A DNA stretch of 64,000 nt from Clostridia bacterium (GTDB taxonomy: Bacteria > Bacillota > Clostridia > UMGS1883), in assembly GCA_017411435.1 (NCBI GenBank), contig JAFQQD010000027.1, positions 2,926-66,925 on the forward strand, in the 5' to 3' direction. The notes below the pieces were generated by a model. It saw only the letters and a list, made by a program, of their open reading frames with translations, had not been told where the DNA came from and did not search any database. Made by a program: the position numbers and the translations under genes. Position 1 is the stretch's first letter. Each line of letters starts with the position of its first letter. Of the stretch, positions 1 through 24,211 are shown one piece after another.

Positions 1-1
1 T

Positions 2-3013: not shown

Positions 3014-3040
3014 TCTCACCATACGAAAGGACAAATACAA

Positions 3041-4225: not shown

Positions 4226-4254
4226 TAAAGAACTCTTGGAAGGATTGAATATAA

Positions 4255-5514: not shown

Positions 5515-5530
5515 GAAAGGAGCAACCGAC

Positions 5531-9217: not shown

Positions 9218-9231
9218 TAAGGAGCTTATTT

Positions 9232-9774
9232 ATGGATTCTGTCAGAAATAGAGTAAAAGAACACAGAAAAATAAGGAATAAAAAACTTTTGTTTGGTGTA
9301 ATCGCTGTAATCATTTTAATTATTGTTGCAATTACAGTAGAAAACAGAATCAGTTCTAAACCTACTGAGGTTACAATTTATAAAAATGAGATAACAGACG
9401 AAAAAGCGGTGTTCATCCCTGTAAAACAGCTTGACACCAGCATTATTGCTGTCAAAACAATTGACGGAAGCTATCGTCTTGCTTTTAATGATTGCATAGG
9501 TTGTTATCAGCAGTTTGGAGTTCGTGGTAAATTCAAAAACAATTCGGATAATACGGGTCTCATCTGTGACAACTGCAAAAGCGAAGTAATGTATGACGAA
9601 ATGGGTTACCTTGCTGAGGAAAGTATGCCTTATCCCATTCCTGAAGTTGAAATAGAGTCTCTTGATGACAAATTTGTAATTTCAGCAGATTATCTTGAGG
9701 CGAAAAAACAGGCTCTTCTTGAAATGCGTAGCGGTAAAGTGAAGAATCAGTACAGCGAAAACCCGAATAAATAA
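9232..9774 (+). CDS. Membrane-anchored CxxC...CxxC protein (DUF2318/FtrD-like Fe-S protein)
   Basis: N-terminal hydrophobic helix; AFNDCIGC and LICDNCK motifs resemble DUF2318. Confidence 0.6.
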   Translation: MDSVRNRVKEHRKIRNKKLLFGVIAVIILIIVAITVENRISSKPTEVTIYKNEITDEKAVFIPVKQLDTSIIAVKTIDGSYRLAFNDCIGCYQQFGVRGKFKNNSDNTGLICDNCKSEVMYDEMGYLAEESMPYPIPEVEIESLDDKFVISADYLEAKKQALLEMRSGKVKNQYSENPNK

Positions 9775-9796
9775 AATACAAATTTTTTCAAACATT

Positions 9797-9840
9797 AAAA
9801 CCTCTTTTCCTGCTTAAAATAAAGTAGGAAAAGAGGTTTT
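9797..9840. terminator. Bidirectional intrinsic terminator
   Basis: Perfect 15-bp arms AAAACCTCTTTTCCT / AGGAAAAGAGGTTTT. Confidence 0.75.
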
Positions 9841-9843
9841 TTT

Positions 9844-10437
9844 ATGAAAATTATTTTAATTGTTGCGATAGCTATTTTAACGGGATGTGCTGCCCGAAAT
9901 CAGCCAATAGCACAAAAACAAAGAGCTAATCCTCTTGAAAATAGATTTTTCAGACAAAAGGAACTGGTTGAAAAGGAAACAGTACTGGGGGAAGCATCAA
10001 CAAATATTCTCGACCAAGGAAAAAACAGAGTTCAGAATATTAAAATAGCATGCGAGAAAACGAGTGGTGTTGAGGTCAAGGCAGGGGAGACATTCAGCTT
10101 TAATTCCTCAACAGGCGAAAGAAACGAGGAAAATGGCTATAAAAATGCTCCGGTAATAGTTGACGGAGAAAAAAGTTACGGCGTAGGCGGGGGAGTATGC
10201 CAGGTAAGCACAACAATCTATCTGGCGGCACTTAATTCAAATTTGTCTGTCACAGAACATCATAACCACAGCGAACCTGTAGCTTACGCTCCGAGTGGAA
10301 AAGATGCAACTGTAGTATACGGGGTAAAGGACCTTAAAATTAGAAATAATACCGATAAATCTATCTATATTTATACCTGGATAGAAAATGAAAAAGTTTT
10401 TGCAAAAATTATTAAAAAAAGTATTGACATACAATAA
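9844..10437 (+). CDS. VanW-family lipoprotein (YoaR-like)
   Basis: Lipobox-like LTGC; FSFN, GGGVCQVSTT, HHNHS and DATV.YG motifs. Confidence 0.85.
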   Translation: MKIILIVAIAILTGCAARNQPIAQKQRANPLENRFFRQKELVEKETVLGEASTNILDQGKNRVQNIKIACEKTSGVEVKAGETFSFNSSTGERNEENGYKNAPVIVDGEKSYGVGGGVCQVSTTIYLAALNSNLSVTEHHNHSEPVAYAPSGKDATVVYGVKDLKIRNNTDKSIYIYTWIENEKVFAKIIKKSIDIQ

Positions 10438-10481
10438 AATTAATGCTATTATAATGACAAGAGATAACGATAACGATTATC
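10424..10481 (+). promoter_or_regulatory. Sigma-A promoter with downstream Fur/PerR box
   Basis: TTGACA 10424-10429, 17-bp spacer, TGcTATTAT 10444-10452; GATAACGATAACGATTATC 10463-10481 is 16/19 to the Fur consensus GATAATGATAATCATTATC. Confidence 0.75.
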
Positions 10482-10503
10482 GTTATTGGCAAGGAGGGAT
10501 TAT

Positions 10504-10863
10504 ATGAGGTATAGCAGACAGCGTGAAGCGCTTCTTGATTTACTTCGCTCGACAAAGTCCCATCCGGACGCAGAATGGTTGTATACCGGACTTCGTAAAG
10601 AATATCCCAATATATCGCTCGGTACAGTCTATCGTAATTTAAGGCAGCTGACTGAGGCGGGGGAAATAATTGAATTGTGTTATGGTAACATTTCACATTT
10701 TGACGGTGACATATCACCCCATTATCATATGAAATGTAATAACTGTAACCGAATTTACGATATACCGATATCAAGCGTTTCGATAAACCTCAGCGGTACA
10801 GACAACTTTGAAGTAGACACAATCAATCTCGTCATAAACGGTACTTGTCGGAATTGTCAGTAA
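10504..10863 (+). CDS. perR: Fur-family regulator, PerR-like
   Basis: [26 protein letters not shown] and C-terminal CxxC; upstream of rubrerythrin; ATG 10504 follows AAGGAGG. Confidence 0.85.
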
Positions 10864-10900
10864 AATAATTAATTTTTATATACGAAAGGAAAAGATTATT

Positions 10901-11488
10901 ATGAAAAAATTTGTATGTTCAGTATGTGGTTATGTTCACGAGGGTACAAATCCTCCCGAGGCTTGTCCCGTATGTAAGGTTCCTGCTGAAAAGTTCAAGG
11001 AAATGCAGGAAGGCGCAGCTCTTGCAGCAGAGCATGAGTATGGCGTATATGCAAAGACAGTAAAAAACAACCCCGATATTTCAGAAGAAGATAAGAAGTA
11101 CATCTTCGAACAGTTGATGGCTAACTTCAACGGCGAATGTAGCGAAGTTGGTATGTACCTTTGCATGGCACGAATTGCTCATCGCGAAGGATATCCTGAA
11201 ATTGGTCTCTACTGGGAAAAGGCAGCTTATGAAGAAGCAGAACACGCTGCAAAGTTTGCAGAGCTTCTCGGCGAAGACCTTGAGCCCAACATGAAGGCTA
11301 CAACAAAAGACAACCTTAAGTGGAGAGTTGACTGTGAATATGGTGCAACTCAGGGTAAGTTTGACCTCGCTTCTTGTGCAAAGAAGAACGGCCTTGATGC
11401 AATCCATGATACAGTTCACGAAATGGCTCGCGACGAAGCTCGACACGGGAAGGCATTAGAAGGTTTGCTCAATAGGTTCTTCAAGTAA
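10901..11488 (+). CDS. rbr: Reverse rubrerythrin (N-terminal rubredoxin site plus di-iron domain); last codons element-derived
   Basis: CSVCGY...CPVC at N-terminus; EAEHA and EARHG di-iron motifs. Confidence 0.93.
11435..11451 (+). repeat. attL core region
   Basis: GAAGCTCGACACGGGAA; 15/17 match to 24161-24177. Confidence 0.85.
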
Positions 11489-11495
11489 GAAAAAT

Positions 11496-11523
11496 AAAGG
11501 GTTTGGAACACTCCAAACCCTTT
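11496..11523 (+). terminator. Element-supplied terminator for the reconstituted rbr
   Basis: AAAGGGTTTGGA-acac-TCCAAACCCTTT followed by T-rich sequence. Confidence 0.85.
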
Positions 11524-11628
11524 TGTTATGCCACTTTTCTTTAATTTTTACTGTTTAGTTCACGAAACTAAAATTGTTTACTGTTCTTGAGAATTCCAGT
11601 GTGTTTTTTAATGGTTTTTTATGAAAAA

Positions 11629-11699
11629 GTGGGCAGTTGGTGGGCAAAACCCACCAAAAAATCACTCTGCCCACCACAAAAAATGCCATTTGCCCACCA
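11629..11699. repeat. Putative integrase arm-type sites near attL
   Basis: GTGGGCAGTTGGTGGGCAAAA 11629-11649 (exact copy at 24080-24100); inverted TGCCCACCA at 11668 and 11691. Confidence 0.7.
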
Positions 11700-11707
11700 A
11701 AGTATTG

Positions 11708-12286
11708 TCAAGTATTACTGTTTATAAACCCTTTGACTTCACTTTTTGCTCTGTTGTTTTCCCTATCAACCTTTAATTCTTTTGAGATAGATATTCTCCC
11801 TATCACTTCTTGTATATCAAGTCTTTTTCTTTCTTCAAAACAATATTCTACTGCATACATAAAGTTTAAATCATAAAACTTGGAATAATACTTGGGGTTA
11901 ATAACAACATATTTATTTCTTCCAATCTTATAAAATGCTATCAAGTTTAGTCTTTCAAGCATATTTAATGTATTATATGTATGTACCACAGAATAACCCA
12001 TTTTTTCTGCAATTTCTTTTATTGAAAGTTTCAAAAGGTTTGTATCTGGTTCTATATGCTTGACATTGATATTTACAAGTAGAATAAAAAAGTTTGTGTA
12101 TTTTCTATCTACACCCAATTTGTTTACAAGAAAATCTAATGCAGTAATATGTATCTTCATAAACTTTCTTTTGTCTTTTTTCTTTTTCTCTGGAAGAACA
12201 ATAGTAGAATACCCTTTACTGTTAATGCTAAAAAGTTCTTTCCAGATTTCATTATGTTCAAGACCACTGATTTGTTTCATATACAC
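11708..12286 (-). CDS. RepL-like winged-helix replication/maintenance protein
   Basis: SIKEIAEKMGYS...TLNMLE HTH followed by G...YVVINP, as in Firmicute RepL-type proteins. Confidence 0.55.
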   Translation of the reverse strand: MYMKQISGLEHNEIWKELFSINSKGYSTIVLPEKKKKDKRKFMKIHITALDFLVNKLGVDRKYTNFFILLVNINVKHIEPDTNLLKLSIKEIAEKMGYSVVHTYNTLNMLERLNLIAFYKIGRNKYVVINPKYYSKFYDLNFMYAVEYCFEERKRLDIQEVIGRISISKELKVDRENNRAKSEVKGFINSNT

Positions 12287-12423
12287 CCCCTAACAAGAGA
12301 AAACTTAAACTGAACTTTATATAAACATAAAATACAGTTTATATTTAAAAATCTTTGAAATGCCCACTGTTGCTTAATTTGTGAGCATTTTTTAATTTTT
12401 GTTATTCTTACTCTTATTAGTAT

Positions 12424-12849
12424 TTATTCTATATCTGCTATGTCAACTAAATCATTTTTGAAAACAAAACAAATCTCTTTTAAATCTCTACACTCTGTTA
12501 TTACATACTCAATGTTGAGAACCCTAAAATAAGTTTGAAAAAAAGCAAAAACTTCTGGAAACCAATTCCTAATTTTTAAAATACCATTTGAAAAATAAAT
12601 GTCTGCATTGTCATACATACTACTTGCATACTCTGCAATGTATTCAACAAGTCTGTATTGATTCACTGCAATAAAACCTTTAATGTTTTCTACTACACCT
12701 TTTTGTAAAAGAGAAGAAACAACATAAGAAATATTTGGTTGAGTGCAACCTATACACTTTGACATTTCTTCTTGGTTAAAATGAAATTGTTTGTTGTTTA
12801 GTAGTGATAATGTTAAAATCTCACTGCTATTTATGAAAAATGCTCCCAT
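12424..12849 (-). CDS. Small winged-helix (MarR-like) DNA-binding protein
   Basis: NQEEMSKCIGCTQPNISYVVSSLLQKGVV; ATG at 12849 follows AAGGAGGTG. Confidence 0.6.
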   Translation of the reverse strand: MGAFFINSSEILTLSLLNNKQFHFNQEEMSKCIGCTQPNISYVVSSLLQKGVVENIKGFIAVNQYRLVEYIAEYASSMYDNADIYFSNGILKIRNWFPEVFAFFQTYFRVLNIEYVITECRDLKEICFVFKNDLVDIADIE

Positions 12850-12977
12850 TTTCCACCTCCTTAAAAATAATATAATTTTGAGTTTATACAAATATAAATC
12901 TCTTTATAATTGTTTTAACACCATTTTATATTACTGTCAAATTATAAAAATATTTATATTTTGGTAAAGGTTTTGAT

Positions 12978-13124
12978 GGACTGCTTAAAAGATACTTTGA
13001 AACAAAACTGGTAAAAAAATCACAAAACTAAATCTGGACCGGTTCTGTGTTAGATTTAATTTCTGCAAAAAATAACCAGTTTTCAAAATAGGGGTTCAAA
13101 GGTCTGTTAGATAGATATTTTGAA
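12978..13124 (+). repeat. 147-bp structured direct repeat, copy A
   Basis: 3 mismatches to 20267-20413; nested inverted arms AAACTGGT/ACCAGTTT and TAAATCT/AGATTTA. Confidence 0.92.
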
Positions 13125-13130
13125 ATAAAA

Positions 13131-13161
13131 AAACTACCAACTGAAAAACAGTTGATAGTTT
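13131..13161 (-). terminator. Intrinsic terminator
   Basis: AAACTACCAACTG-aaaaa-CAGTTGATAGTTT hairpin at the 3' end of 13166-13642. Confidence 0.65.
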
Positions 13162-13165
13162 GCTT

Positions 13166-13642
13166 TTAATCTTCTATTGGTCTTGGAGAAATATTAAAAA
13201 TCTCTTTCTTTTTTCTTCTGGCATAGGTAAAGGTTCTGTATGCTCCCCCATAGTGCCTTTCTATATAGCAAATAACATACTCACAGTTATCTACAACATA
13301 CTCATTTCCTTTTATGATTTGAAACTTCTGGGGAGTGTTCAAGGGTATATCTGCCATAAGAATATTATCATAATCTTTATAATACAGTTCCTTGTATTCA
13401 TTTATGCCTTTGGTTATGTATGGTATAACCAACTCTAATTTTATATCAGTATAAGTTTTCTGCAACTCTCTTATAACAGAAGAAGAACACCCATCAAATC
13501 TGCCATAATGCCCAACCCAGAACTCACTGACATTATGATTTAAAATCAAATCTTCTGCTATTGCTTTTATTTTTTCTCTTGTTTCTTCTGGGTAAGTAAT
13601 ATCACTATGCCCACAGAAACAACACCTTTTTATATTTTCCAT
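13166..13642 (-). CDS. SLOG-superfamily protein (DUF1273/YspA-like)
   Basis: CCFCGH N-terminus; F.VG.YG.FD, N.YVVD and GGAY.T..YA motifs. Confidence 0.7.
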   Translation of the reverse strand: MENIKRCCFCGHSDITYPEETREKIKAIAEDLILNHNVSEFWVGHYGRFDGCSSSVIRELQKTYTDIKLELVIPYITKGINEYKELYYKDYDNILMADIPLNTPQKFQIIKGNEYVVDNCEYVICYIERHYGGAYRTFTYARRKKKEIFNISPRPIED

Positions 13643-13770
13643 AATTACACCTTGCTAAAATACTAAAACTTCCTTGACACAGAAGTTTTATTTTATTATA
13701 CATAATAATCTTTTATTTGTAAATAGTTTATAATTATATATATAAAATAATTATGTAGATAGGTGTTTTT

Positions 13771-14019
13771 ATGAACTATTATAATGAAAAAGAATATCAA
13801 ATGTTTATAATAAAAGTTGGGTTAAAAGTTGGTTATTACAGAAGACTTGCAAATATGACACAAGAGCAGTTGAGTGAAAGCAGTGGTATGTCATTAAACT
13901 TTATTTCTCAATTAGAAGGTCCTTCTGCTCCTTATGTTCCTTCCCTAAAATCACTATTTAAAATAAGTAAAGTGTTAGGTGTTCCAATAAATAAATTAGT
14001 AGATGTAGATAATGATTAA
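13771..14019 (+). CDS. XRE-family HTH regulator
   Basis: YRRLANMTQEQLSE...ISQLE...PSLKSLFKISKVLGV. Confidence 0.88.
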   Translation: MNYYNEKEYQMFIIKVGLKVGYYRRLANMTQEQLSESSGMSLNFISQLEGPSAPYVPSLKSLFKISKVLGVPINKLVDVDND

Positions 14020-14042
14020 AGACTGCCAATGAGCAGTCTTTT

Positions 14043-15044
14043 TTAACTATATAAATAAATCTGTTTCAGGTCCTTTCTTTCCCCACTATGAGATAAGTGC
14101 CTTTGAATAACCATACTTTCTGCTTTTTCTTTACTCCACCCTTTATCAAGATAATATTGTAGTGCAATCTGGCAGTGATATTTTCTAAATTGGTGGTTTT
14201 TCCCACTGACTTCTAACCCCAATTCTTTTGTGATTTTTCTTATTTCATTACTCATAATTTGCCTTGTTGCTTTTGTGTCCTTTGGTAAGTCAAAAAGTCT
14301 GTCAGTTGGGTTCTTGCCTTGTTTCAGTTCTTCAAAAAAACTTCTGTATTCTGGGAGTATAATTCTATAACTATCTTTGCCACCTTTACCTACAATATGA
14401 ACAGTAGAATAAGTGTCTATTCTTCCATCTTTGGTAGTGGTGGTATAGGTATGAGTGTCAAGGTTAATATCTTCTGCTTTTATATTTATGAGTTCAGAAA
14501 CTCTGCAACCTAAAAATGCCATTGTCTTAATCTCATTTTGTCTGTTCCCTTTGTAGTTGCATATCTGTATAATTTCAGTATTTGTGTAAGTTCTTGCAGA
14601 ATTAGTTTTATATGTATCTTCCACCTTGTGTGCCTTTACTTCTTGTGTATAAAACTGCTCACAACCAAACTTTTTGGAACAAGCAATAGAAACTTTTTCC
14701 AACATATTTTTGTATGCAGCAACAGTTTTTTTACTGCAACCTTGTTTTGTGTTCAAATATTCCAGACACATTTTTGGTGTGATTTCTTTAACCATTTTTA
14801 TGTTGTAGTTTTCTTTCAAGAACTTAACAAAGTTTTTGCTTTTCTCTGCCAAGCATTGTGCAGTTCTTTGAGAAAATACATAGTTAATGCTTGTCCCATT
14901 TTTCTTAAACTCCCTTTTGCCAACACTTGAAAAATGAGTGCCATTTTCTCTGTTGTAAATCTCTGTTCTTTTTTCTTGATTTTGCATATTTATTTCTGCA
15001 AGTGCAGTGTGTATTTGATAACCCAAAGACTTATTTTTGCCCAT
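14043..15044 (-). CDS. Second tyrosine recombinase (candidate recombinase-type relaxase)
   Basis: GCRVSEL (R), GKGGK (K), HQFR (HxxR), LSH and terminal Y; no recognisable arm-binding domain. Confidence 0.8.
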   Translation of the reverse strand: MGKNKSLGYQIHTALAEINMQNQEKRTEIYNRENGTHFSSVGKREFKKNGTSINYVFSQRTAQCLAEKSKNFVKFLKENYNIKMVKEITPKMCLEYLNTKQGCSKKTVAAYKNMLEKVSIACSKKFGCEQFYTQEVKAHKVEDTYKTNSARTYTNTEIIQICNYKGNRQNEIKTMAFLGCRVSELINIKAEDINLDTHTYTTTTKDGRIDTYSTVHIVGKGGKDSYRIILPEYRSFFEELKQGKNPTDRLFDLPKDTKATRQIMSNEIRKITKELGLEVSGKNHQFRKYHCQIALQYYLDKGWSKEKAESMVIQRHLSHSGERKDLKQIYLYS

Positions 15045-15073
15045 TTTGAAAATACCCCCTTTTTAATCTGTAT

Positions 15074-15609
15074 TCACTGAAAATGGCAACATTTTCAGTG
15101 ATTTTTCCATAAAAAATGATTTTACACATTTTTTATAATTTTTTTCCTATTAAATACATTTTATTCCTTTTTATTTCTTTTTTCTGGTGCAGTGCAAAAT
15201 TGTTTAGGTTTAAATCAACCTAACCAATTTTGCAACAAAGTTTGGTATAATAAAAACCGGTTTTTTATTATACCAAATATGTGCAAAAAAAATCTGCTAC
15301 AACCAATAGCAGATTTTATCTGTCTTTTGAAAAATCACTCTTTGACTTTTTATAAGTTTAGTATGGCAGTTGCCACAAAGAACTTTTAAAAAGTCCCAAA
15401 AATAATTTATGATAAACACCACAAGTGGTGGAAAGAAAAATTATTTTTCCCTTGTTTCCTTATCAAGAGAAAATGTCTTTTGTGGGAAAGACAAAGAGTG
15501 TAAGAGTGATTTTTTCCAAAAGTTGTGTATAAGTAAAAAGTTTTAATATTATATAGTCTATCTGTAAGTTAAAACTTTATTGTTGCGAGTGCAAGAGTTC
15601 TGCTCTTGC
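15074..15609. other. Non-coding cluster of inverted repeats (candidate oriT/origin)
   Basis: IRs at 15074-15101, 15193-15234, 15241-15277, 15289-15317 and 15591-15609, plus shorter ones; no credible ORF. Confidence 0.55.
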
Positions 15610-15702
15610 TTTTTCTTTTTAAGAAAGGTCTGTTGGGAGTGTATATAAATGAAACCATTTATATTATTGTAGATAAAAAGTAAATACCCTTTTTTACATA
15701 AG

Positions 15703-15733
15703 CAAAGGAGCAGATTTTTTGTCTGCTCCTTTT
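15703..15733 (-). terminator. Terminator of the Xre regulator gene
   Basis: AAAGGAGCAGA-7nt-TCTGCTCCTTT. Confidence 0.7.
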
Positions 15734-15740
15734 GTCATTT

Positions 15741-16793
15741 TTATTTTATATATGAAATCAGTAAATCAGTTAATTTAACTCTAAAACTTTCAATGTCTGT
15801 TTCTGTTGCAGAGAATAAAGGGGAGAAATCAACATTGATAGCATTAACAAACTTATCTTTTCCATTTGTGCAGTTGTCTATCAGTTTTAAAACACTTTCT
15901 GGCATATTGCCATTTTTTAAAGATTGCAGTTTGTTGTAAAAGTCCCTACTGCTTATAGGTGCTCCTTGACTGATAAAATTACTTTGAAAATTGTTGTCAG
16001 TGTAATTTTCAACAACCTTTGCAATTTTATCAAAAATGTTTTCATAACCATAACTTTCTAACTCATTGTAAATGTCTGCATAAATCTGGTCATAGTCTTT
16101 TCTTTGTCTTTCTTCCAGTTCCAGACAGACAAGCAGTGAAAACAAAGTGGAGTATCTTATCTTATTATTAGTAAGAATATCATTGACAATGCAGTTAATG
16201 TCCTTGTCAGTTAGTTCATATTTGATACACCAATAAGGGTAGTTGCCCAAGTCCTTGTATTTCTCTGTATCAAGACCAACATACACTTCATTTGCTACTT
16301 TTATACTTGTTTTCAGTTTTATGTGCTTGTTGCCATTAAGTTTTTGCAGTGCAACAGTCCAGGCAGTAAAAGTGTCAGTTTCTTCTATACTCCTTAATAT
16401 TCTTCTTTCAAGAGCATTACTCAAAGTAATATACTGATACTTCATATAATATGCCTTAACCCAGTCTTGATTTTGCAGATTTTCTATTTCTGCATTTGCC
16501 CCATACAAATATTTTTCCAAGTGCATAATCACAAATTGGTCTATGGGCATAGTTTCCCAACCCACCTTGTTTTTGTATATTTCAAAGAAATTATTAAGAG
16601 TGTCAGTTGTGATACTGTTGCTCCCAGTTGCCTTTTCAAGATTTTTATATGTGTTGAGTTTCATACCCAAAAGTTCTGCCATATCTTCTGCCATAAGATT
16701 TATGTCTTTTCTCATATCTTTAAGGTGCTTTTTCAGTTCTGGTGTCAAATCATACTTTACACCTTGTGTAATATTTCTGCTTTCAGTTCCCAT
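15741..16793 (-). CDS. Large XRE-HTH regulator (probable element repressor) with unknown C-terminal domain
   Basis: LKDMRKDINLMAEDMAELLGMKLNTYKNLE; divergent from xis-int. Confidence 0.72.
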   Translation of the reverse strand: MGTESRNITQGVKYDLTPELKKHLKDMRKDINLMAEDMAELLGMKLNTYKNLEKATGSNSITTDTLNNFFEIYKNKVGWETMPIDQFVIMHLEKYLYGANAEIENLQNQDWVKAYYMKYQYITLSNALERRILRSIEETDTFTAWTVALQKLNGNKHIKLKTSIKVANEVYVGLDTEKYKDLGNYPYWCIKYELTDKDINCIVNDILTNNKIRYSTLFSLLVCLELEERQRKDYDQIYADIYNELESYGYENIFDKIAKVVENYTDNNFQSNFISQGAPISSRDFYNKLQSLKNGNMPESVLKLIDNCTNGKDKFVNAINVDFSPLFSATETDIESFRVKLTDLLISYIK

Positions 16794-16827
16794 TTTGGTT
16801 GTCTCCTTTCCTTATTATATATTATAT

Positions 16828-16975
16828 ACTATACACCAAAAAATCTATTCTGTCAAGTCAAAAATACAAAAATAACACCCCAAGTGTTTTGGAATAAAAA
16901 ATATTTTAAAAATATTTCAAAAAACCATTGACACAATAATTTTTGTATGTTATAATATAAAACACTGAGGGTGTT
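16828..16975. promoter_or_regulatory. Divergent sigma-A promoters with two inverted 15-bp operators
   Basis: Plus strand: TTGACA 16928, 17 bp, TATAAT 16951. Minus strand: TTGACA (16856-16851), 17 bp, TATAGT. Operators AACACCCCAAGTGTT 16874-16888 and AACACTGAGGGTGTT 16961-16975 (13/15 as reverse complements). Confidence 0.8.
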
Positions 16976-17041
16976 AAAATGAAACATTGAAAACAAAATG
17001 TATTGTTTTAACATCATAATTTCAAAAAAGGGAGTGATTAA

Positions 17042-17254
17042 ATGACAACTTCAAGACTTGTGTTAAGTGTTTGTGAAGTAGCAAAGATATTAGGTGTCAA
17101 TAAGGGTTCAGTTTATGCCTTAATACATAGTGGAGCATTATCTGCTATAAAGTTTGGAACATACAAAGTTCCTTCTTTTGAAGTAGATAATTTTCTTCAC
17201 AAGTATTCTGGTTGTGATTTAACTGACCTTAATAATATAAAAACATTAAATTAA
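17042..17254 (+). CDS. xis: Excisionase (HTH_17/MerR-like)
   Basis: LSVCEVAKILGVNKGSVYALIHSGAL.A.KFG; directly upstream of int. Confidence 0.85.
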   Translation: MTTSRLVLSVCEVAKILGVNKGSVYALIHSGALSAIKFGTYKVPSFEVDNFLHKYSGCDLTDLNNIKTLN

Positions 17255-17271
17255 GAAAAGGAGTGTTGAAA

Positions 17272-18492
17272 ATGGCAGAAAAGATTTATGAAGGAACAAG
17301 ATTTAAGGGTGGTAGTTGGAGATACAGAATAAAAATGACACTGCCCAATGGTACAAAAATTAACAAAGAAAAAGCAGGTTTCAAAAGTTCTTATGAGGCA
17401 AGTCAAGCAAGAATTGAAGAGATTGGCAGAATAAAACTCACAAACTTTGTTGAGAAAAAGATAACTTTAAATGAAATGTATAGTCTTTACTTGAAAGAAA
17501 GTGCAACAAAGCAGAAGAGTTATAACACAGTGTTAAGGTATAATTCCATATACAAAAACCATATTGAAAATAGTCTTGGAGAAATGTATGTGGCAAGAAT
17601 ACAACCACTTGACATTACACATTTCTTAAATGAAAAGGCAGAGCAGTATAAGACTGACTACCCTTTGAGTATGTATAACTTTTTCTTGGTTCTCTTTGAT
17701 TTTGCAAGAAAGCATAAGTATATAAATGAAGATATTATGGCATTGGTTGAAAGACCAAGACCTTACACAAGACCAGAAAAGGTGTTGCTAACCCCAGAAG
17801 AGTTTAATGCTCTTGAAAAAAGGTTAATGTCAACAAATGTGCAAGTTGCTTTTACCATAGGAAAAAATAGTGGTTTAAGGGCAAGTGAAGTATATGGGTT
17901 AAGGTGGAGTGATTTTGACTTTGAAAACAACACTTTTGAAGTTAAAAGACAACTTCAAAAAAGGGAAATCAAAGAAGGTGGCAAAGTCTGGCATTTAGTT
18001 CCAGTGAAAACCACAAAAAGTGAAAGAACCATTTATTTTGGAGAAGAGTTTTCCCAGTATATGCAGTTTGTGAAGAAAATGCAAGAAGAAAACAGAAAAA
18101 GACTTGGTAAGTTCTATAAGAGCAACATAATAAATGCTGCAATGGACAAAAATCACCCAGAAATTGTGGAGATTTGGAATGTTGAAGATTTTGTCTGTGT
18201 AAAAGAAAATGGTGCAATGCTTTCTCCAGATAGCAACAAGGTTATTAGCAGAATTGCAAAAGAAATGGGTTTAAAGTTTAACTTCCATTTGTTAAGACAC
18301 TACTATGCAAGTGCCTTACAACAAAATGGTGTTGATATTACAGTTATTAGAGATTGTCTGGGACACTCTAATTTAAGAACCTTGCTTGAAGTCTATTCAC
18401 ATTGCAATGAAGAACAAAGAAGAAGTGCAGGAGCATTGATTGACAGTCTTATGGGTGCTAAAAATCTTATGCCAGAACCAGTGGCAGAGTAA
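17272..18492 (+). CDS. int: Tyrosine integrase with N-terminal arm-binding region
   Basis: GGSWRYRI...GF N-terminus; GLRASE, HLLRH, LGH and VYSH catalytic motifs; ATG 17272 after AAGGAG. Confidence 0.95.
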   Translation: MAEKIYEGTRFKGGSWRYRIKMTLPNGTKINKEKAGFKSSYEASQARIEEIGRIKLTNFVEKKITLNEMYSLYLKESATKQKSYNTVLRYNSIYKNHIENSLGEMYVARIQPLDITHFLNEKAEQYKTDYPLSMYNFFLVLFDFARKHKYINEDIMALVERPRPYTRPEKVLLTPEEFNALEKRLMSTNVQVAFTIGKNSGLRASEVYGLRWSDFDFENNTFEVKRQLQKREIKEGGKVWHLVPVKTTKSERTIYFGEEFSQYMQFVKKMQEENRKRLGKFYKSNIINAAMDKNHPEIVEIWNVEDFVCVKENGAMLSPDSNKVISRIAKEMGLKFNFHLLRHYYASALQQNGVDITVIRDCLGHSNLRTLLEVYSHCNEEQRRSAGALIDSLMGAKNLMPEPVAE

Positions 18493-18513
18493 AGGGTGGT
18501 ATTTCCACCCTTT
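18491..18513 (+). terminator. Hairpin after int
   Basis: AAAGGGTGG-tattt-CCACCCTTT. Confidence 0.6.
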
Positions 18514-18600
18514 ACCTTCTCAAGAGTTGATAATGAAGATACTGTAAATAGTGTTTTCTTTGTTATATATAGAACACAAAAATTAAAAAAATAATTAAAA

Positions 18601-18656
18601 AAGGAGGAGTAGCAGTCAATAGTGGTGTTCCTTTTGCAACTGCTACAAAAGAAAAT
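18601..18656 (+). repeat. SD-hairpin leader, variant 0
   Basis: AAGGAGGA-GTAGCAGT..22 nt..ACTGCTAC-AAAAGAAAAT-ATG. Confidence 0.6.
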
Positions 18657-19094
18657 ATGGAAGTAAAAAAAATCAAAGAATTAGCAAAAGAAAACTTTGA
18701 AAAAGGTTTTTGGGAAAGACATTTTAATTATGCCAGAACCAGTGAAGAAAACCAAAAATGTATGTTGGAAATCATTGAGAAAACTAAAAAAGTTTATGAT
18801 TTGGTTGAAAGTGAAAGTGTTTCATTTGAAGAAAAGTTGAATATGCTTTTTGAAATTGCAGAGAAAGTTTTTGAATATGATTTTGGAATCTGTTTGACAG
18901 AGTGGAAAAAGTATAGTGGCAATATAAATGAGTGTTTACATATAATTGAAATTGATAAAAATGCTCCATATCTAACCCAGTCAAAAAATAGTTTAACTGA
19001 TATTAAAAGCAAAACCTTGTATGGTGCAATAGTTTCCATAAATGTAGGTCTGCTAAAAGAAATATATTTTAATATGAAAGGAGAGTGGGAGTAA
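18657..19094 (+). CDS. Hypothetical protein (cassette 1)
   Basis: 145-aa ORF; its last codons and stop (KGEWE*) are encoded by the next leader repeat. Confidence 0.75.
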   Translation: MEVKKIKELAKENFEKGFWERHFNYARTSEENQKCMLEIIEKTKKVYDLVESESVSFEEKLNMLFEIAEKVFEYDFGICLTEWKKYSGNINECLHIIEIDKNAPYLTQSKNSLTDIKSKTLYGAIVSINVGLLKEIYFNMKGEWE

Positions 19095-19108
19095 ATCTCC
19101 CACAACAA
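19078..19108 (+). repeat. SD-hairpin leader 1
   Basis: AAGGAGA-GTGGGAG-taaat-CTCCCAC-AACAA. Confidence 0.85.
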
Positions 19109-19113
19109 GAAAA

Positions 19114-19374
19114 ATGACTGTTAGAACATTGAAAAAACATTATAAAAAGAACTTCCCAGAAGGACACTTTTTTGATAAAGAAACATTAGAATATTGGGGA
19201 GAGAGTATAAATGCTATGTCAATATCAAAAAACTTGGTTGATTTTAAAGGTCATAAGTGCTATGAATTAGTTGCTCTTCAAAAAAATGATTATCATAACT
19301 TGAATAGATATGTATGGTTTTATTTTGATTGTGAAACTTTTGCATATATTGATTGTAAGTTTAAAAAAGATTAA
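19114..19374 (+). CDS. Hypothetical protein (cassette 2)
   Basis: 86-aa ORF with GHFFDKETLEYWG; aromatic-rich. Confidence 0.75.
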   Translation: MTVRTLKKHYKKNFPEGHFFDKETLEYWGESINAMSISKNLVDFKGHKCYELVALQKNDYHNLNRYVWFYFDCETFAYIDCKFKKD

Positions 19375-19380
19375 AAGTGA

Positions 19381-19412
19381 AAGGAGAGTGGGGACACTGC
19401 TCCCCACAACAA
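19381..19412 (+). repeat. SD-hairpin leader 2
   Basis: AAGGAGA-GTGGGGA-cactgc-TCCCCAC-AACAA. Confidence 0.9.
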
Positions 19413-19419
19413 TTTTATT

Positions 19420-20205
19420 ATGACAAAGTTTGAAAATTATTTTAACAATAAAGACCTTGATAAGAAAACCATTGAAAAATATCTTAAAATCATAGAAAAC
19501 TTGTGTATAGAGTTTGAAGATATAGGTCTACACCCATATAATTATGTTAATGATATGCTATGTATAGCAGAATATTTTGGTGTGGAATTGTGCTACCCAC
19601 TTATCACAGGAGAGAAAGCAGAAAAAATTGTTTTTGAAAAATTAAAATCAAAAATAGAAAATATGGAATATGATTATAATTATGATAATGATACTGAAAC
19701 ACTTATTGACTGGAAAGAACTCAGTGATTTTGTTTATGATATACATAGAAATAGTGAAGATATATATTACTACTATTACAAAACAGATAGCAATTCAGTT
19801 ATGGGTGTTTCTCAACTGGGGGAAGTAGATATAAATAATATTAGAAAAAATCTTTTAGAAAAAATAATAGAGATTGTAGATAATGAACAAGGGAGAGTGG
19901 GGACACTGCTCCCCACAACAGAAAAAATGAAGTATAAAATGAATATAACAATTACCTATAATGACATTGAAACAACCATTGATTTAGATTGTAATTTTTT
20001 TATCATTAAAGAAAATGACTATGGCAACAAATATCATTTGTCAATTACAAACAAATTGGGTTTTAATGAGTGGGTTGATATTAGATATGACACAACCTTT
20101 GATATCAACAAAAAAGAAAAGTATCTTGTGGACTGGGCATATAATTATTGGACTGGTAAAAATGGTGCTTGGGGAATCAAGAGAATTAAAGTCATAAAAC
20201 TATAA
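19420..20205 (+). CDS. Hypothetical protein; in-frame fusion of cassettes 3 and 4 (internal start at 19927)
   Basis: 261-aa ORF that reads through leader 3 as GRVGTLLPTT; in-frame ATG at 19927. Confidence 0.7.
   Translation: MTKFENYFNNKDLDKKTIEKYLKIIENLCIEFEDIGLHPYNYVNDMLCIAEYFGVELCYPLITGEKAEKIVFEKLKSKIENMEYDYNYDNDTETLIDWKELSDFVYDIHRNSEDIYYYYYKTDSNSVMGVSQLGEVDINNIRKNLLEKIIEIVDNEQGRVGTLLPTTEKMKYKMNITITYNDIETTIDLDCNFFIIKENDYGNKYHLSITNKLGFNEWVDIRYDTTFDINKKEKYLVDWAYNYWTGKNGAWGIKRIKVIKL
19889..19920 (+). repeat. SD-hairpin leader 3 (inside ORF)
   Basis: AAGGGAGA-GTGGGGA-cactgc-TCCCCAC-AACA, essentially identical to leader 2. Confidence 0.9.
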
Positions 20206-20212
20206 ATGTATT

Positions 20213-20239
20213 AACCACCAACTATGGCAGTTGGTGGTT
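20213..20239 (+). terminator. Terminator of the cassette array
   Basis: AACCACCAACT-atggc-AGTTGGTGGTT followed by T-rich sequence. Confidence 0.8.
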
Positions 20240-20266
20240 TTCTTATACTCTGGAAAAGGGTTTAAG

Positions 20267-20413
20267 GGACTGTTTAAAAGATACTTTGAAACAGAACTGG
20301 TAAAAAAATCACAAAACTAAATCTGGACCAGTTCTGTGTTAGATTTAATTTCTGCAAAAAATAACCAGTTTTCAAAATAGGGGTTCAAAGGTCTGTTAGA
20401 TAGATATTTTGAA
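20267..20413 (+). repeat. 147-bp structured direct repeat, copy B
   Basis: Near-identical to 12978-13124. Confidence 0.92.
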
Positions 20414-20489
20414 TTATAAAAAAGGTGTTTATAAAGTTCTCTATAAATAAACAATTACAAAAAATAACATAATAAAGGGAGTGCTACAA

Positions 20490-20894
20490 ATGACACCAAC
20501 ATTAAAAGAACAGAAGAAAGAGTGCTTAACCAGATTGAAACTTTCTGGGTTATGCAATGAAGTTATTACAGACTTCAAAAATGGGCAGTTATACAAGACT
20601 GAACAACTGGGTATATTGTATTATATCAATGACAATGAAAAGGCAGTGGTTAAAGACTTTGAAGAAAAAAATAATGCTATGGTATATCATATATTACATA
20701 GTAATACAGAGTTTGGAGAATTACTTGCTTTACTCTATGTCAGTAAATACAAGGAAGAGTGGCAAACTGACAGAGAAGATTTAAAAGATAATATTGCTTT
20801 GTCTTATGTCTATAATGTTGATTGCCCAGATTTCAGTGAGTTTGGTTCTATTGGTTTTGCCCAGAGATTTGGGGGACTTGTGAGAACTGCATAA
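20490..20894 (+). CDS. Hypothetical protein (LYVSKYKEEW...DREDL...SEFGSIG...GGLVR)
   Basis: 134-aa ORF; ATG at 20490 after AAGGGAG; own terminator at about 20897-20943. Confidence 0.8.
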   Translation: MTPTLKEQKKECLTRLKLSGLCNEVITDFKNGQLYKTEQLGILYYINDNEKAVVKDFEEKNNAMVYHILHSNTEFGELLALLYVSKYKEEWQTDREDLKDNIALSYVYNVDCPDFSEFGSIGFAQRFGGLVRTA

Positions 20895-20973
20895 CCCCAC
20901 CACCACCAACCAATAAAAATTATGGTTGAGTGGTGGTTTTTTTTAACTTTTTTATGTTAATTCTGTGAAATTA

Positions 20974-21002
20974 TTGATTTTCCAACAGATATATGGTATA
21001 AT
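20974..21002 (+). promoter_or_regulatory. Sigma-A promoter of the MTase operon
   Basis: TTGATT, 17 bp, TGgTATAAT. Confidence 0.7.
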
Positions 21003-21039
21003 AAATACTAACTATACTTGCATATAGGAGAAGATAAAA

Positions 21040-22188
21040 ATGGCAGGGACAAAAGATTTACATAATGCAAAAAAAGAGAAAAAAGATGAGTTTTATACTC
21101 AACTTGAAGATATAGAACTTGAACTAAAACATTATAGAAATGACTTTAAAGGCAAGGTTATTTTTTGTAATTGTGATGACCCCTATGAAAGTAATTTCTT
21201 TAAATACTTTGCAATGAACTTTAATACTTTTGGACTTAAAAAGTTAATTGCTACTTGTTATGCTACTTCCCCAGTGGCAAACACACAACTTTCTTTGTTT
21301 GATATTTTAGATATGCCAGAAGAAACAGAAGAAGATAACAGAAAACCACATAAAATAGAGATTACAGAAGTTCTGGACTACAATGAAGATGGAGCAGTAG
21401 ATTTAGCAGATGTTGAGTTTCTTTTAAGAAGTAAAAAAAACACTCTTACACTTCTTAATGGAGATGGAGATTTTAGAAGTGAAGAGTGTATAGAACTTTT
21501 AAAACAAGCAGACATAGTTATAACAAACCCACCATTTTCTTTGTTTAGAGAATATGTTGCTCAACTAATTGAATATGACAAGAAGTTTATTATTATAGGA
21601 AATAAAAATGCTATCACTTATAAAGAAATATTTTCTTTAATACAAGAAGAGAAAATGTGGTTGGGTTATAGAAATATAAATGCAGATATGTGGTTTATAG
21701 TTCCAAAAGACTATGAGTGTGAAAAGGTTGTAAATGGTTTAAGAGTTAAGCATATTATGGGTTGTTGGTTCACAAATCTTGACACAACTAAAAGACACGA
21801 AGATTTATTGCTTTTCAAACCATATACCCCAGAAGAATACCCCAAATATGATAATTATGATGCCATAAATGTTGATAAAGTTAGTGATATTCCTTGTGAT
21901 TATGATGGTGTTATTGGAGTTCCTATAACATTTCTTGATAAATACAACCCTAACCAATTTGAAATACTTGGGTTGTCTCAAAAAGTTGGTATGGGGTTAG
22001 AAAGCAACAAGTTTTATGATGATTACAAGGAAGTAAGACAAGATGGCAGTTTTACTGGTAGTTCTGGCAAAAAAACAAATGGAAACCCAGTAATGAAAGG
22101 AAAACCAGAAAAAGGAAATTACTACACTAATGGAACTGATTTTGTATATTCTCTCTATGGAAGAATATTCATAAGGAAAAAAAGGTGA
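21040..22188 (+). CDS. Adenine-specific DNA methyltransferase, EcoRI family
   Basis: K.DEFYTQL, CNCDDP.ESNF, GDFRS.E, ITNPPFSLFREY and GVPITFLDKYNP.QFEI motifs. Confidence 0.92.
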   Translation: MAGTKDLHNAKKEKKDEFYTQLEDIELELKHYRNDFKGKVIFCNCDDPYESNFFKYFAMNFNTFGLKKLIATCYATSPVANTQLSLFDILDMPEETEEDNRKPHKIEITEVLDYNEDGAVDLADVEFLLRSKKNTLTLLNGDGDFRSEECIELLKQADIVITNPPFSLFREYVAQLIEYDKKFIIIGNKNAITYKEIFSLIQEEKMWLGYRNINADMWFIVPKDYECEKVVNGLRVKHIMGCWFTNLDTTKRHEDLLLFKPYTPEEYPKYDNYDAINVDKVSDIPCDYDGVIGVPITFLDKYNPNQFEILGLSQKVGMGLESNKFYDDYKEVRQDGSFTGSSGKKTNGNPVMKGKPEKGNYYTNGTDFVYSLYGRIFIRKKR

Positions 22189-22192
22189 GTTT

Positions 22193-23302
22193 ATGGAAAT
22201 AAGATTAGAAGAAAAAACAATTAGAGAAATCTATAATGGTTATCTTGATAGTGCAGAAAATGGAGTGGTTGCATTTGGTGGAAAATTAAATGTAAGACCA
22301 CCTTTCCAGAGAGAGTTTGTCTATTCTGGCAAACAGAGAGATGCAGTCATTGATACAATACAAAAAGACTTCCCATTAAATGTTATGTATTGGGTTGAAA
22401 ATGACAATGGTTATTATGAACTTCTTGATGGACAACAAAGAACCATAAGCATTTGTCAATATGTGGGTGGAGAATATTCCATAAACCACAGAGCATTTGG
22501 AAACTTGACTGAAACTGAAAAAGAGCAGATTTTGAATTATAAACTAATGATTTATATTTGTAAAGGTAATGACAAAGAGAAATTAGACTGGTTCAAAATC
22601 ATAAATATTGCAGGAGAAAAACTAACAGACCAAGAGTTGAGAAATGCCATTTATACTGGTGAGTGGTTGTCAAATGCAAAAGCATATTTTTCTAAAAATA
22701 ACTGCCCAGCATATCAAATAGCAAGTAAATATATGAGGGGAACACCCATAAGACAAGACTACCTTGAAACAGTCTTAAAATGGGTTTCTGCAAGAGATAA
22801 TATTGACTTGGAAGATTATATGGCAGAACACCAGAACACCACAAATGCAAGTGAATTATGGTTGTATTTCAACAGTGTTATTACTTGGGTAAAAACTATA
22901 TTCCCTAATTACAGAAAAGAAATGCAAGGCATTGAGTGGGGACTGCTCTATAACAAATATGGTAATGATAAACTTGACCCACAAGAACTTGAAAAAAGAA
23001 TAGTTGAGTTAATGCAAGATGATGACATAACAAAAAGAAGTGGCATATATGAATACTTATTAAGTGGAGAAGAAAAATACTTGAACATAAGAAGTTTCAC
23101 AGACACAATGAAAAGAAAAGTCTATGAGAAACAAAAAGGTATATGCCCACATTGTAAAGCAGAGAAGAAAGAGAAAATACACTGGGAGATTGAAGAAATG
23201 GAAGCAGACCACATTACACCTTGGTGTGAAGGAGGAAAAACAGAAATTGAAAATTGCCAAATGCTCTGCAAAGAACATAACAGAAGAAAATCAAGTAAAT
23301 AA
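22193..23302 (+). CDS. DUF262 (GmrS-like) plus C-terminal HNH endonuclease
   Basis: P.FQR, DGQQRT and F..IN motifs; CPHC...MEADHITPW.EGGKT...NCQMLC..HN.RK. Confidence 0.9.
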   Translation: MEIRLEEKTIREIYNGYLDSAENGVVAFGGKLNVRPPFQREFVYSGKQRDAVIDTIQKDFPLNVMYWVENDNGYYELLDGQQRTISICQYVGGEYSINHRAFGNLTETEKEQILNYKLMIYICKGNDKEKLDWFKIINIAGEKLTDQELRNAIYTGEWLSNAKAYFSKNNCPAYQIASKYMRGTPIRQDYLETVLKWVSARDNIDLEDYMAEHQNTTNASELWLYFNSVITWVKTIFPNYRKEMQGIEWGLLYNKYGNDKLDPQELEKRIVELMQDDDITKRSGIYEYLLSGEEKYLNIRSFTDTMKRKVYEKQKGICPHCKAEKKEKIHWEIEEMEADHITPWCEGGKTEIENCQMLCKEHNRRKSSK

Positions 23303-23312
23303 GGAAGAAAAT

Positions 23313-23939
23313 ATGCCAGATTTTTCAATTAAAGCAATAGTTTTAACAATAATTACAACAATAATTACAACTTTAATAGGAATAATAATTAAGGGTATTT
23401 CAATCAGTAAAATAAAAAAATGGTGGGAAGATACAAGAATATATAAGTATTTTAAAAGGTATCAATTTGTTAATGATATTGAAGACAATCAAAAGACCTT
23501 TAGCACCTTTATAACATTAAGCAAAAGTAATACAGACCAAACAAATACAGAATATCAAAAAGCAATGTTTTCCATACAAGACAAATTACATAAAACAGTA
23601 GTTAAAGAAAAGGAACTTTGGGGGAAAATCAAATCAAGTACAACATCTCCAAAGGAAAGAGAAATATTAAATGAATTATTGTCAATAAATAGTGGTGGTA
23701 ATACTGATAATATTTCAAAAAGTGAATTAAAAACTATTGGAGATAAAAGGTTGAAGTGTTGTAAGCAGTATATTAAAACACTAAAAAAATATCAACAAAC
23801 ACCAATAGAGAATTATCAAGTTGAAAAACTTGACTGCTTGAAAGATTATGTTAATGCAACAAAGTCTTATTATGAATTGTTGTATATCTATTTACCCATT
23901 GACAAAAGAAATATTATAGAAAAATCTTTTAATAAATAA
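23313..23939 (+). CDS. Hypothetical protein with N-terminal transmembrane helix
   Basis: IKAIVLTIITTIITTLIGIII; ATG 10 bp after the HNH gene stop. Confidence 0.7.
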   Translation: MPDFSIKAIVLTIITTIITTLIGIIIKGISISKIKKWWEDTRIYKYFKRYQFVNDIEDNQKTFSTFITLSKSNTDQTNTEYQKAMFSIQDKLHKTVVKEKELWGKIKSSTTSPKEREILNELLSINSGGNTDNISKSELKTIGDKRLKCCKQYIKTLKKYQQTPIENYQVEKLDCLKDYVNATKSYYELLYIYLPIDKRNIIEKSFNK

Positions 23940-23944
23940 AAAGA

Positions 23945-23973
23945 TTGCAATATCAAGCAGTATGTGGTATAAT
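23945..23973 (+). promoter_or_regulatory. Outward-facing sigma-A promoter pointing at attR and ftnA
   Basis: TTGCAA, 17 bp, TGgTATAAT; no credible ORF before attR. Confidence 0.65.
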
Positions 23974-24060
23974 AAAAATACATAATCACAGAATATAAAT
24001 ATACTGTGATAAACAGAAACAGACCTAAAACCTTTGGTTTTATGCCCTTATTCTTTGAAA

Positions 24061-24100
24061 TGGTGGGCACAAGAAAAAGGTGGGCAGTTGGTGGGCAAAA
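24061..24100. repeat. Putative integrase arm-type sites near attR
   Basis: TGGTGGGCA 24061; GTGGGCAGTTGGTGGGCAAAA 24080-24100. Confidence 0.7.
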
Positions 24101-24160
24101 TGAGATTGAAAATCACAGAACCCTTGATTTTACTGGGTTTCTGTGAGTAAGTCCCATTGT

Positions 24161-24211
24161 GAGGCTCGCCACGGGAAAGGCTTGGAAGGTCTTTTGAAGA
24201 GATATTTCTAA
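24161..24211 (+). pseudogene. attR with the displaced original 3' end of rubrerythrin
   Basis: Translates EARHGKGLEGLLKRYF*, versus [17 protein letters not shown] at 11435-11488. Confidence 0.9.

Follow-up and report, generated by a model that had tools for sequence, protein, structure and literature searches.

A stretch of 64,000 nucleotides from a Clostridia bacterium (contig JAFQQD010000027.1; hereafter the window) contains a block of about 12.7 kb, at positions 11452–24160, that is an integrated mobile element and has lost almost every CG dinucleotide. CG is one entry in a longer list: about 20 short words have been purged from this element, most of them without CG and most of them classic Type II restriction sites. 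The same losses occur in at least nine other Clostridia contigs, and again in a second element family with a different class of integrase. The best explanation, and in our view a probable one, is ongoing selection against short recognition words, that is, restriction evasion.

CG is nearly absent from the element and normal around it

A direct count found five CGs in the block, at 11563, 13040, 15258, 15586 and 21798, exactly the positions listed in an earlier sequence-only reading of the window. At 30.2% G+C, 287 would be expected, which gives an observed/expected ratio (O/E) of 0.017 and a Poisson probability of ~1e-114; the claim of that reading that CG lies far below random expectation therefore holds. 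The GC dinucleotide is normal in the block (O/E 0.96), and TG and CA are in excess (O/E 1.32 and 1.22). CG is abundant on both sides and resumes at the attachment cores, again as the sequence-only reading had it: the O/E is 1.01 in the left flank and 0.94 in the right, and the nearest flanking CGs, the last on the left at 11446 and the first on the right at 24167, lie in or beside the core CACGGGAA. AT-rich host windows have ordinary numbers of CG (32 against 26 expected at 34001, and 33 against 29 at 39001), and there is no other CG-poor island elsewhere in the 64-kb window. The counts confirm that the loss is real and confined to the element.

Codon usage was analyzed in the 15 open reading frames (ORFs) of the element, which comprise 3400 codons. 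None of the 131 arginine codons is CGN; all are AGR, extending to every ORF the AGA/AGG usage noticed earlier in the codons that had been checked. There are no NCG codons, and C|G junctions between codons number 1 against ~113 expected. Arginine itself is not reduced: it accounts for 3.9% of codons in the element (131/3400) and 4.1% in the host (535/13104). The non-coding DNA of the element has ~4 CG where 54 are expected. When synonymous codons are shuffled without altering the proteins or the element's CG-free codon usage, 104 ± 7.5 CG are predicted in the coding sequence, and one is observed. Since the shuffle still predicts 104 CG, codon bias and AT-richness do not explain the loss. The sequence-only reading had named a CG ratio like that of the flanks or of other AT-rich DNA, after correction for codon bias, as the outcome that would speak against its claim; the corrected comparison, 104 against 1, came out the other way.

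A discrete list of short words is missing

Six four-base palindromes, GATC, CATG, CTAG, AGCT, ACGT and TCGA, are each expected 35 times in the block from base composition and each occur 0 times. GGCC is also absent (6.5 expected), and GTAC is partly lost (3 against 35). The losses extend to non-palindromic words: GGAT/ATCC occurs 0 times against ~70 expected, AGCC/GGCT 0 times against ~30, and CAGC/GCTG 3 times against ~30. Because AGCC/GGCT, AGCT and GGCC all stand at zero, every word of the form RGCY is absent. GANTC, GTNAC, TCNGA, RAATTY, ATTAAT, AAATTT and CATATG are nearly or wholly missing, and the longer lost words also include CTGCAG, CTTAAG, GTTAAC and GTATAC. TGCA is not avoided (71 observed, 35 expected), and AATT, TTAA, ATAT and TATA are still common.

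The shuffle confirms that these word losses are independent of codon usage. It predicts 16.5 GATC, 15.6 CATG, 15.1 CTAG, 16.3 AGCT, 26.5 GGAT and 19.4 AAATTT in the coding sequence, in which each of the six has a count of 0; for TGCA it predicts 55, and 61 are observed. Asymmetric words are gone in both orientations relative to the coding strand (GGAT 0, ATCC 0, AGCC 0, GGCT 0), so the constraint acts on double-stranded DNA and not on RNA.

Word statistics were also pooled over 83.9 kb from eight family members. In this sample only CG and nine tetranucleotides have an O/E below 0.3, and other trinucleotides and tetranucleotides are not comparably depleted, which indicates a discrete word list and not general compositional drift. 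Among these nine tetranucleotides, none of which contains CG, six are palindromes. CG itself is lost about equally in all 16 neighboring contexts, with pooled O/E values of 0.02 for ACG, 0.04 for CGA, 0.04 for CGC and 0.06 for CCG.

The losses are conserved in relatives and maintained in CG-normal hosts

Integrase relatives with 95–70% amino acid identity were found in five Clostridia metagenome-assembled genomes (MAGs), from human cohorts and goat gut, one of them labeled Ructibacterium; more distant ones were found in another NCBI MAG (67%), in JGI metagenome contigs (53%) and in an ENA contig (41%). In the related loci L001–L005, L037, L038–L040 and L042 the element has a CG O/E of 0.015–0.14, and the host flanks return sharply to normal CG at 33–48% G+C. 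Across the analysis, ten host contexts were sampled, and all ten are normal in CG beside a CG-free element. The tetranucleotides missing from the window element are also missing from every CG-free integrase relative. At least seven relatives (L001, L002, L004, L005, L037, L038 and L044) adjoin a rubrerythrin gene or a remnant of one, as the window element does.

The synonymous divergence (dS) between the window element and its relatives is 0.2–1.4 for the integrase gene and for rec2, which encodes a second tyrosine recombinase. Over this range the relatives have 0–5 CG per gene of ~1.1 kb; the orthologues in a CG-normal relative, L041, have 33–45. Because the CG-free state persists through a dS of 0.2–1.4 in CG-normal hosts, it is being maintained now and is not a relic. 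Cargo genes follow the same rule, as 15 cargo stretches in the relatives that have no homologue in the window are equally devoid of CG and the other words. The window's own pair of methyltransferase and restriction endonuclease genes is found only in the window, L001 and L037.

The cargo of L042 (4816–6441), whose integrase is 41% identical to that of the window, comprises a Bsp6I-like restriction enzyme and a C5 methyltransferase, with 5 CG against 15 and 5 against 24 expected, respectively. These two restriction-modification genes thus retain 10 CG, at an O/E of ~0.2–0.3, as if they had been partly purged.

A near-identical copy, L044 (Logan DRR773864, 3438–5472), matches the window at 99.6% over 3.4 kb, from the right end of the element to the rubrerythrin remnant. 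Beyond that remnant it continues into PepSY, GntR and ABC-transporter genes and not into ferritin; as the copy lies beside different genes, the element has moved recently. The modules of the element look mosaic. A 350-amino acid (aa) regulator occurs as alleles with either 34–38% or 80–94% aa identity (window against L001–L005, L037 and L038), and these alleles do not track the integrase or rec2; in L038, rec2 is 95% identical and the integrase 53%. This variation resembles that of immunity repressors.

Scans of IMG/VR with the integrase, rec2, the 350-aa regulator and a 261-aa ORF returned no relatives, so the element family is not represented among the viral contigs catalogued there, and one metagenome scan gave a single remote hit. 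Phage and plasmid collections contain only remote relatives: the identity of the integrase to those of phages does not exceed 30%, and that of rec2 to recombinases of small C. perfringens plasmids is 26–29%. One distant rec2 homologue is labeled Mycoplasmataceae.

A second element family shares the losses

A second family, represented by L066 (~9846–15340 of ENA k141_337996) and L067 (XIEF21-1 scaffold_4491), consists of ~5.5-kb elements whose integrase is a large serine recombinase and whose target site differs. They carry a rec2 homologue (68% identity), an HTH_3 regulator and several similar-sized small ORFs. CG occurs 8 times against ~115 expected, GATC 0/14, CTAG 0/14, AGCT 1/14, GGAT 0/30, CAGC 0/12, GANTC 1/14, GTNAC 1/14 and ATTAAT 0/10. 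More distant rec2-bearing elements are half depleted or undepleted in CG.

Phage relatives of the window's methyltransferase (43–63% aa identity) and restriction endonuclease (54–68%) have a CG O/E of 0.35–1.3. Across 43 phage-derived loci the minimum is 0.35, and 0–4 four-bp palindromes are eliminated, with one outlier. Inheritance of the trait with the cargo genes is ruled out by these phage loci, whose CG is ordinary. The element's own methyltransferase and endonuclease are ruled out as the cause as well, since L002–L005, L038 and L066 lack the pair and are equally CG-free.

Elsewhere, in L069 (19544–20960), a CG-poor segment with a 333-aa rec2-like gene starts right where a very AT-rich serine-recombinase element with normal CG ends; this pair may have been inserted in tandem.

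Restriction evasion as the probable cause, and its alternatives

Under restriction evasion, the element would have been purged, and would still be being purged, of a discrete list of short words by selection at each horizontal transfer. Unmodified incoming DNA without the sites of the recipient's restriction or defense systems would escape cleavage, and copies that gained a site would be lost at the next transfer. CG would be the cheapest word to purge, as every CG can be replaced silently (arginine as AGR, NCG by NCH, NNC|G by NNT|G), and its removal eliminates 5 of the 16 four-bp palindromes and 23 of the 64 six-bp palindromes, plus every asymmetric motif containing CG. Avoidance of restriction sites is well established in phages and in small, broad-host-range plasmids (PMC6286503; PMC10359461). 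The hosts avoid words of their own: the flanks in the window (1–11451 and 24161–64000) have ACGT 0/181, GATC 34/181 and CTAG 17/181, and the flanks of other hosts avoid CGCG, GCGC, CCGG and GGCC in some cases. The lost-word list of the element resembles the union of such host-avoided lists. We infer that the selection is exerted by restriction enzymes and that transfers happen often enough to keep it going. The sequence-only reading had offered selection against CG-containing restriction sites as one of two causes. Its appeal to site selection is supported in a general sense; its restriction to CG was too narrow, as the ~20 words are mostly without CG and CG has been lost well beyond palindromes.

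Several observations weigh against restriction evasion, at least as a complete account. L041 (1–11869 of CBDQFI010000055.1, GCA_965336585.1) is syntenic with the window element, with an integrase 45% and a rec2 70% identical, and still avoids GATC, CTAG, AGCT, GTAC, GANTC and GTNAC; its CG content is normal (329 against 352 expected, O/E 0.94). In L015 (1–8480 of IMGVR_UViG_3300028242_001187), an 8.5-kb viral contig whose methyltransferase is related to that of the element, 12 of the 16 four-bp palindromes are missing, TGCA and TTAA among them; its CG O/E is 0.96, and CCGG is over-represented (27 against 11). From these two loci, strong Type II pressure alone does not remove CG. To our knowledge no restriction enzyme recognizes CG alone, and pressure from the usual 4–6-bp sites should not empty the six non-palindromic NCGN classes to so even a degree. 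Nor is the element adapted to its present host in particular: TTTAAA is missing from the 51 kb of host flanks (0 against 41 expected), and the element keeps 21 copies. The absence of ACGT and TTTAAA from these flanks suggests MaeII-like and DraI-like restriction-modification systems in the host lineage. The hosts do not avoid GGAT, CAGC, AGCC, AGCT or CG, and so give no independent sign of enzymes that would select against these words. No transfer genes (relaxase, capsid or packaging) that would account for its passage between cells were found among the ORFs of the element. According to a published survey, near-complete site elimination is found more typically in virulent phages than in temperate or integrated elements (PMC6286503).

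Part of this would be accommodated by a dedicated CG-specific agent acting on top of ordinary site avoidance, an undescribed activity that selects against every CG. The even loss of CG in all contexts, the separation of palindrome avoidance from CG loss in L015 and L041, and the occurrence of the trait in two element families with different integrases all favor it, and the loss of all RGCY and all GGAT would point to agents of unusually short specificity. The host clade might have a nuclease or defense system of very short specificity; alternatively, a helper phage or competing element might encode a nuclease that spares CG-free DNA. We know of no such enzyme. The host chromosomes are full of CG (O/E ~1), and the host would need protection; if CpG methylation provided it, deamination should have left a footprint, of which there is no sign. 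The CG-free elements share no candidate gene that L041 lacks, and the window has no second CG-poor island. We hold such an agent to be unlikely. Slightly more doubtful is the specific proposal that CG, perhaps with GGAT and RGCY, represents the recognition words of an undescribed nuclease or defense system in uncultured gut Clostridia, in a helper phage or in a competitor.

The other cause offered by the sequence-only reading was mutational: a long stay in hosts with a CpG-specific C5 methyltransferase of the M.SssI/M.MpeI type, in which deamination of 5-methylcytosine turns CG into TG or CA. The excess of TG and CA, the private CGs that usually align with TG or CA in relatives, a 180-nt repeat with CG in one copy and CA in the other, and the distant rec2 homologue labeled Mycoplasmataceae can all be read this way, and CpG under-representation accompanies a CpG methyltransferase in Mycoplasma penetrans (as cited in PMC11282364). 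The excess of TG/CA, which had been proposed as a check, is real both in composition and in aligned columns, but it does not discriminate between causes, because a silent change away from NNC|G or NCG can lead only to NNT|G or NCA/NCT, respectively. Against a relic stand the ten CG-normal host contexts and the persistence of the CG-free state through a dS of up to ~1.4, over which a relic would have decayed. The O/E of 0.017 is far under the 0.35 minimum of the 43 phage-derived loci, and in the Mycoplasmataceae-labeled relatives (L063–L065) the depletion reaches only about half. The loss extends to the same degree to nine tetranucleotides without CG; deamination cannot account for the losses of GATC, CATG, CTAG, AGCT, GGCC, GGAT, RGCY and CAGC, and is therefore not supported. 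Arginine, not reduced and encoded entirely by AGR, would need C-to-A transversions, and no ORF of the element matches a C5-methyltransferase family. We consider a deamination relic improbable.

A compositional cause, an effect at the level of translation or RNA (including avoidance of an RNA-cleaving toxin), or an artefact of chimeric or synthetic assembly is very improbable. The element is AT-rich (30% G+C), but the shuffle still expects 104 CG, and AT-rich host windows are normal. As CG is self-complementary, a constraint on RNA would look symmetric for CG alone; the non-palindromic words, however, are lost in both orientations, by which an RNA-level constraint is ruled out, and non-coding DNA is equally depleted. 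The same pattern appears in assemblies made independently by unrelated studies, among them studies of goat-gut, Hadza and JGI samples, and the element proteins have strong family matches, both of which argue against an artefact.

Relation to known systems

Restriction-site avoidance as such is a known kind of adaptation, and it is extreme here. As in phages and plasmids (Rusinov et al. 2018, PMC6286503; Shaw, Rocha and MacLean 2023, PMC10359461), the words that fall short of composition-corrected expectation are short and for the most part palindromic sites of Type II enzymes; the element, which is small, also avoids them more strongly than its host does. The differences are that ~20 words stand at an O/E of 0–0.1, that a whole dinucleotide is among them along with the non-palindromic GGAT, AGCC and CAGC, and that the element is integrated; a 2018 survey found near-complete elimination mainly in non-temperate phages and for single sites (PMC6286503). 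L015 is, like the window element, an extreme multi-site avoider, but its losses are purely palindromic and the dinucleotide is spared. The CpG depletion of Mollicutes with M.SssI or M.MpeI, as cited in PMC11282364, likewise combines low CG with high TG/CA; as described there it is genome-wide and goes with a CpG methyltransferase, whereas here it is confined to the element in normal hosts, is far deeper and is accompanied by losses of non-CG words.

CpG suppression in vertebrate viruses under ZAP or TLR9, in the part of PMC11282364 that discusses it, is also a case of a parasite shedding a dinucleotide that is sensed as non-self. Unlike in that case, the host here is not CG-poor, and the resemblance is conceptual, serving as an analogy for a CG-specific agent. 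We are not aware of any bacterial counterpart of ZAP/TLR9 dinucleotide sensing. In its architecture the element is similar to small phage-like integrative elements or integrative plasmids that have an integrase and an excisionase and that both enter and rebuild the 3' end of a gene; with these it shares the tyrosine integrase, excisionase, arm repeats, 8-bp core, surrogate 3' end and variable restriction-modification cargo. It differs in adding the Xer-like rec2 and two winged-helix proteins, and it has no capsid, packaging, relaxase or conjugation genes.

The literature that we searched contains no earlier description of a CG-free bacterial mobile element. Three aspects look new: that a dinucleotide and ~20 restriction words have been erased almost completely, that this has happened in an integrated element, and that the state is conserved across two integrase classes and unrelated cargo. 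If restriction evasion is correct, this would be the most extreme natural case of sequence 'stealth' known to us, covering coding and non-coding DNA in at least two element families, and it would show how far site avoidance can reach without a cost to the proteins. The lost-word list would then be a negative image of the restriction specificities circulating in a clade without cultured representatives, including CG, GGAT and RGCY. It suggests a compositional screen for islands with a CG O/E below 0.1 inside CG-normal genomes, and element backbones could serve as naturally restriction-proof vectors for genetically recalcitrant gut anaerobes. If instead a CG-specific agent exists, it would represent a new kind of defense specificity, with the CG-free families as its evolutionary footprint, and a bacterial parallel to systems that tell self from non-self by a dinucleotide.

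Ends, target gene and gene content of the element

The block is a site-specific integrative element inserted in the 3' end of a host rubrerythrin gene, an end that it restores itself (Table 1). It supplies the last 12 rubrerythrin codons and the stop (11452–11488) as a CG-free surrogate, and the displaced original end is followed directly by a ferritin gene. The two core octamers are flanked by similar half-sites, GCTCGA and GCTCGC. A tyrosine integrase, an adjacent excisionase and a direct repeat of the core at a conserved target are the features by which integrative elements are recognized, and all are present. Gene calls for 24–33 kb of the window are housekeeping and sporulation genes only. 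An ENA gut-metagenome scaffold, reached through the restriction endonuclease sequence, is identical to the window; the GTG-start integrase and the ferritin gave no exact protein match.

The Pfam scan covered all 15 ORFs of the element, and scans with NCBIfam and PADLOC covered some of them. These family scans found no relaxase, conjugation, capsid or packaging gene among the ORFs and no match to a C5-methyltransferase family in any of them; the sole methyltransferase is the EcoRI-family N6-adenine enzyme. The nuclease encoded next to it matches a REBASE-type model of Type II restriction enzymes over its full length, and the adjacent pair has the makeup of a predicted Type II restriction-modification cargo. 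The 192-aa winged-helix protein may start replication of the excised circle. The gene caller places the start of the integrase at 17272.

Table 1. Features of the integrated element and its junctions in the window (HTH, helix-turn-helix)
Feature	Position	Strand	Evidence or remark
Host rubrerythrin gene	10901..11488	+	ORF translation; Pfam Rubrerythrin on orthologues
attL core CACGGGAA	11444..11451		octamer common to both junctions; host CG 11446 inside
Element body, almost without CG and the other lost words	11452..24160		word counts
Family-conserved residual CG	11563..11564		center of inverted repeat TTTAGTTCACGAAACTAAA; in 5/5 aligned elements
Left GGTGGGCA / TGCCCACC repeat cluster, putative integrase arm-type sites	11624..11700		arm role suggested by sequence
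192-aa winged-helix protein, weak DnaD-like match	11708..12286	-	all matches weak, E ~3e-3; conserved in relatives
155-aa winged-helix (MarR/TrmB-like) protein	12424..12891	-	weak matches; conserved in relatives
180-nt direct repeat, copy a	12954..13133		holds residual CG 13040 (ACCGGT)
158-aa SLOG/YpsA-like protein	13166..13642	-	PF06908 E 3e-5, below gathering score
82-aa Cro/C1-type HTH regulator	13771..14019	+	PF01381 E 1.7e-9
rec2, second tyrosine recombinase, Xer-like	14043..15044	-	marker common with the serine-integrase family
Perfect 37-nt palindrome TTTGGTATAATAAAAACCGGTTTTTATTATACCAAA	15241..15277		family-conserved CG (CCGG) at dyad, 15258
Family-conserved residual CG (TGCGAG)	15586..15587		non-coding, between 350-aa regulator gene and rec2
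350-aa regulator, N-terminal HTH	15741..16793	-	weak HTH matches
Excisionase (HTH_17)	17042..17254	+	PF12728 E 4e-10; excisionase phrogs
Tyrosine integrase, arm-binding and SAM-like N-terminal domains	17263..18492	+	PF00589 E 3e-21, PF14659, PF14657
Four cargo ORFs (145, 86, 261, 137 aa)	18657..20894	+	no family match; absent from most relatives
180-nt direct repeat, copy b	20243..20422		ACCAGT in place of ACCGGT
EcoRI-family N6-adenine DNA methyltransferase	21040..22188	+	PF13651 E 4.5e-140; PADLOC MTase_II E 9e-121
DUF262 (GmrSD_N) + HNH nuclease	22193..23302	+	PADLOC REase_II E 8e-136, residues 5-369 against 372 profile positions
208-aa protein with hydrophobic stretch	23313..23939	+	gene call; no family match
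Right cluster, three GGTGGGCA repeats, putative integrase arm-type sites	24058..24100		sequence repeats
attR core CACGGGAA	24170..24177		CG resumes at 24167 and 24172
Displaced original rubrerythrin 3' end (...KGLEGLLKRYF*)	24178..24211	+	kept beside elements in relatives (matches to 23961-24207)

Residual CGs and repeats

When the conserved modules of the family were aligned, 28 columns held a CG. In 23 of these it is private to a single element, and the others usually have TG or CA. Three of the window's CGs, 11563, 15258 and 15586, are kept across the family, and two of them sit at the centers of inverted repeats. New CGs thus appear to arise and to be removed, save where a CG seems functionally required. 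The residual CG at 21798 lies in the methyltransferase gene.

The 37-nt palindrome centered on the second of the conserved CGs carries TATAAT boxes on both strands, in the manner of an operator with divergent -10 boxes. Around it extends a 700-nt non-coding stretch rich in inverted repeats, probably a regulatory or origin region. No Rfam family matches anywhere in the element, the 180-nt direct repeat included. The two copies of this repeat are non-coding and 94% identical, and they lie 7.3 kb apart, upstream of divergently placed gene blocks.

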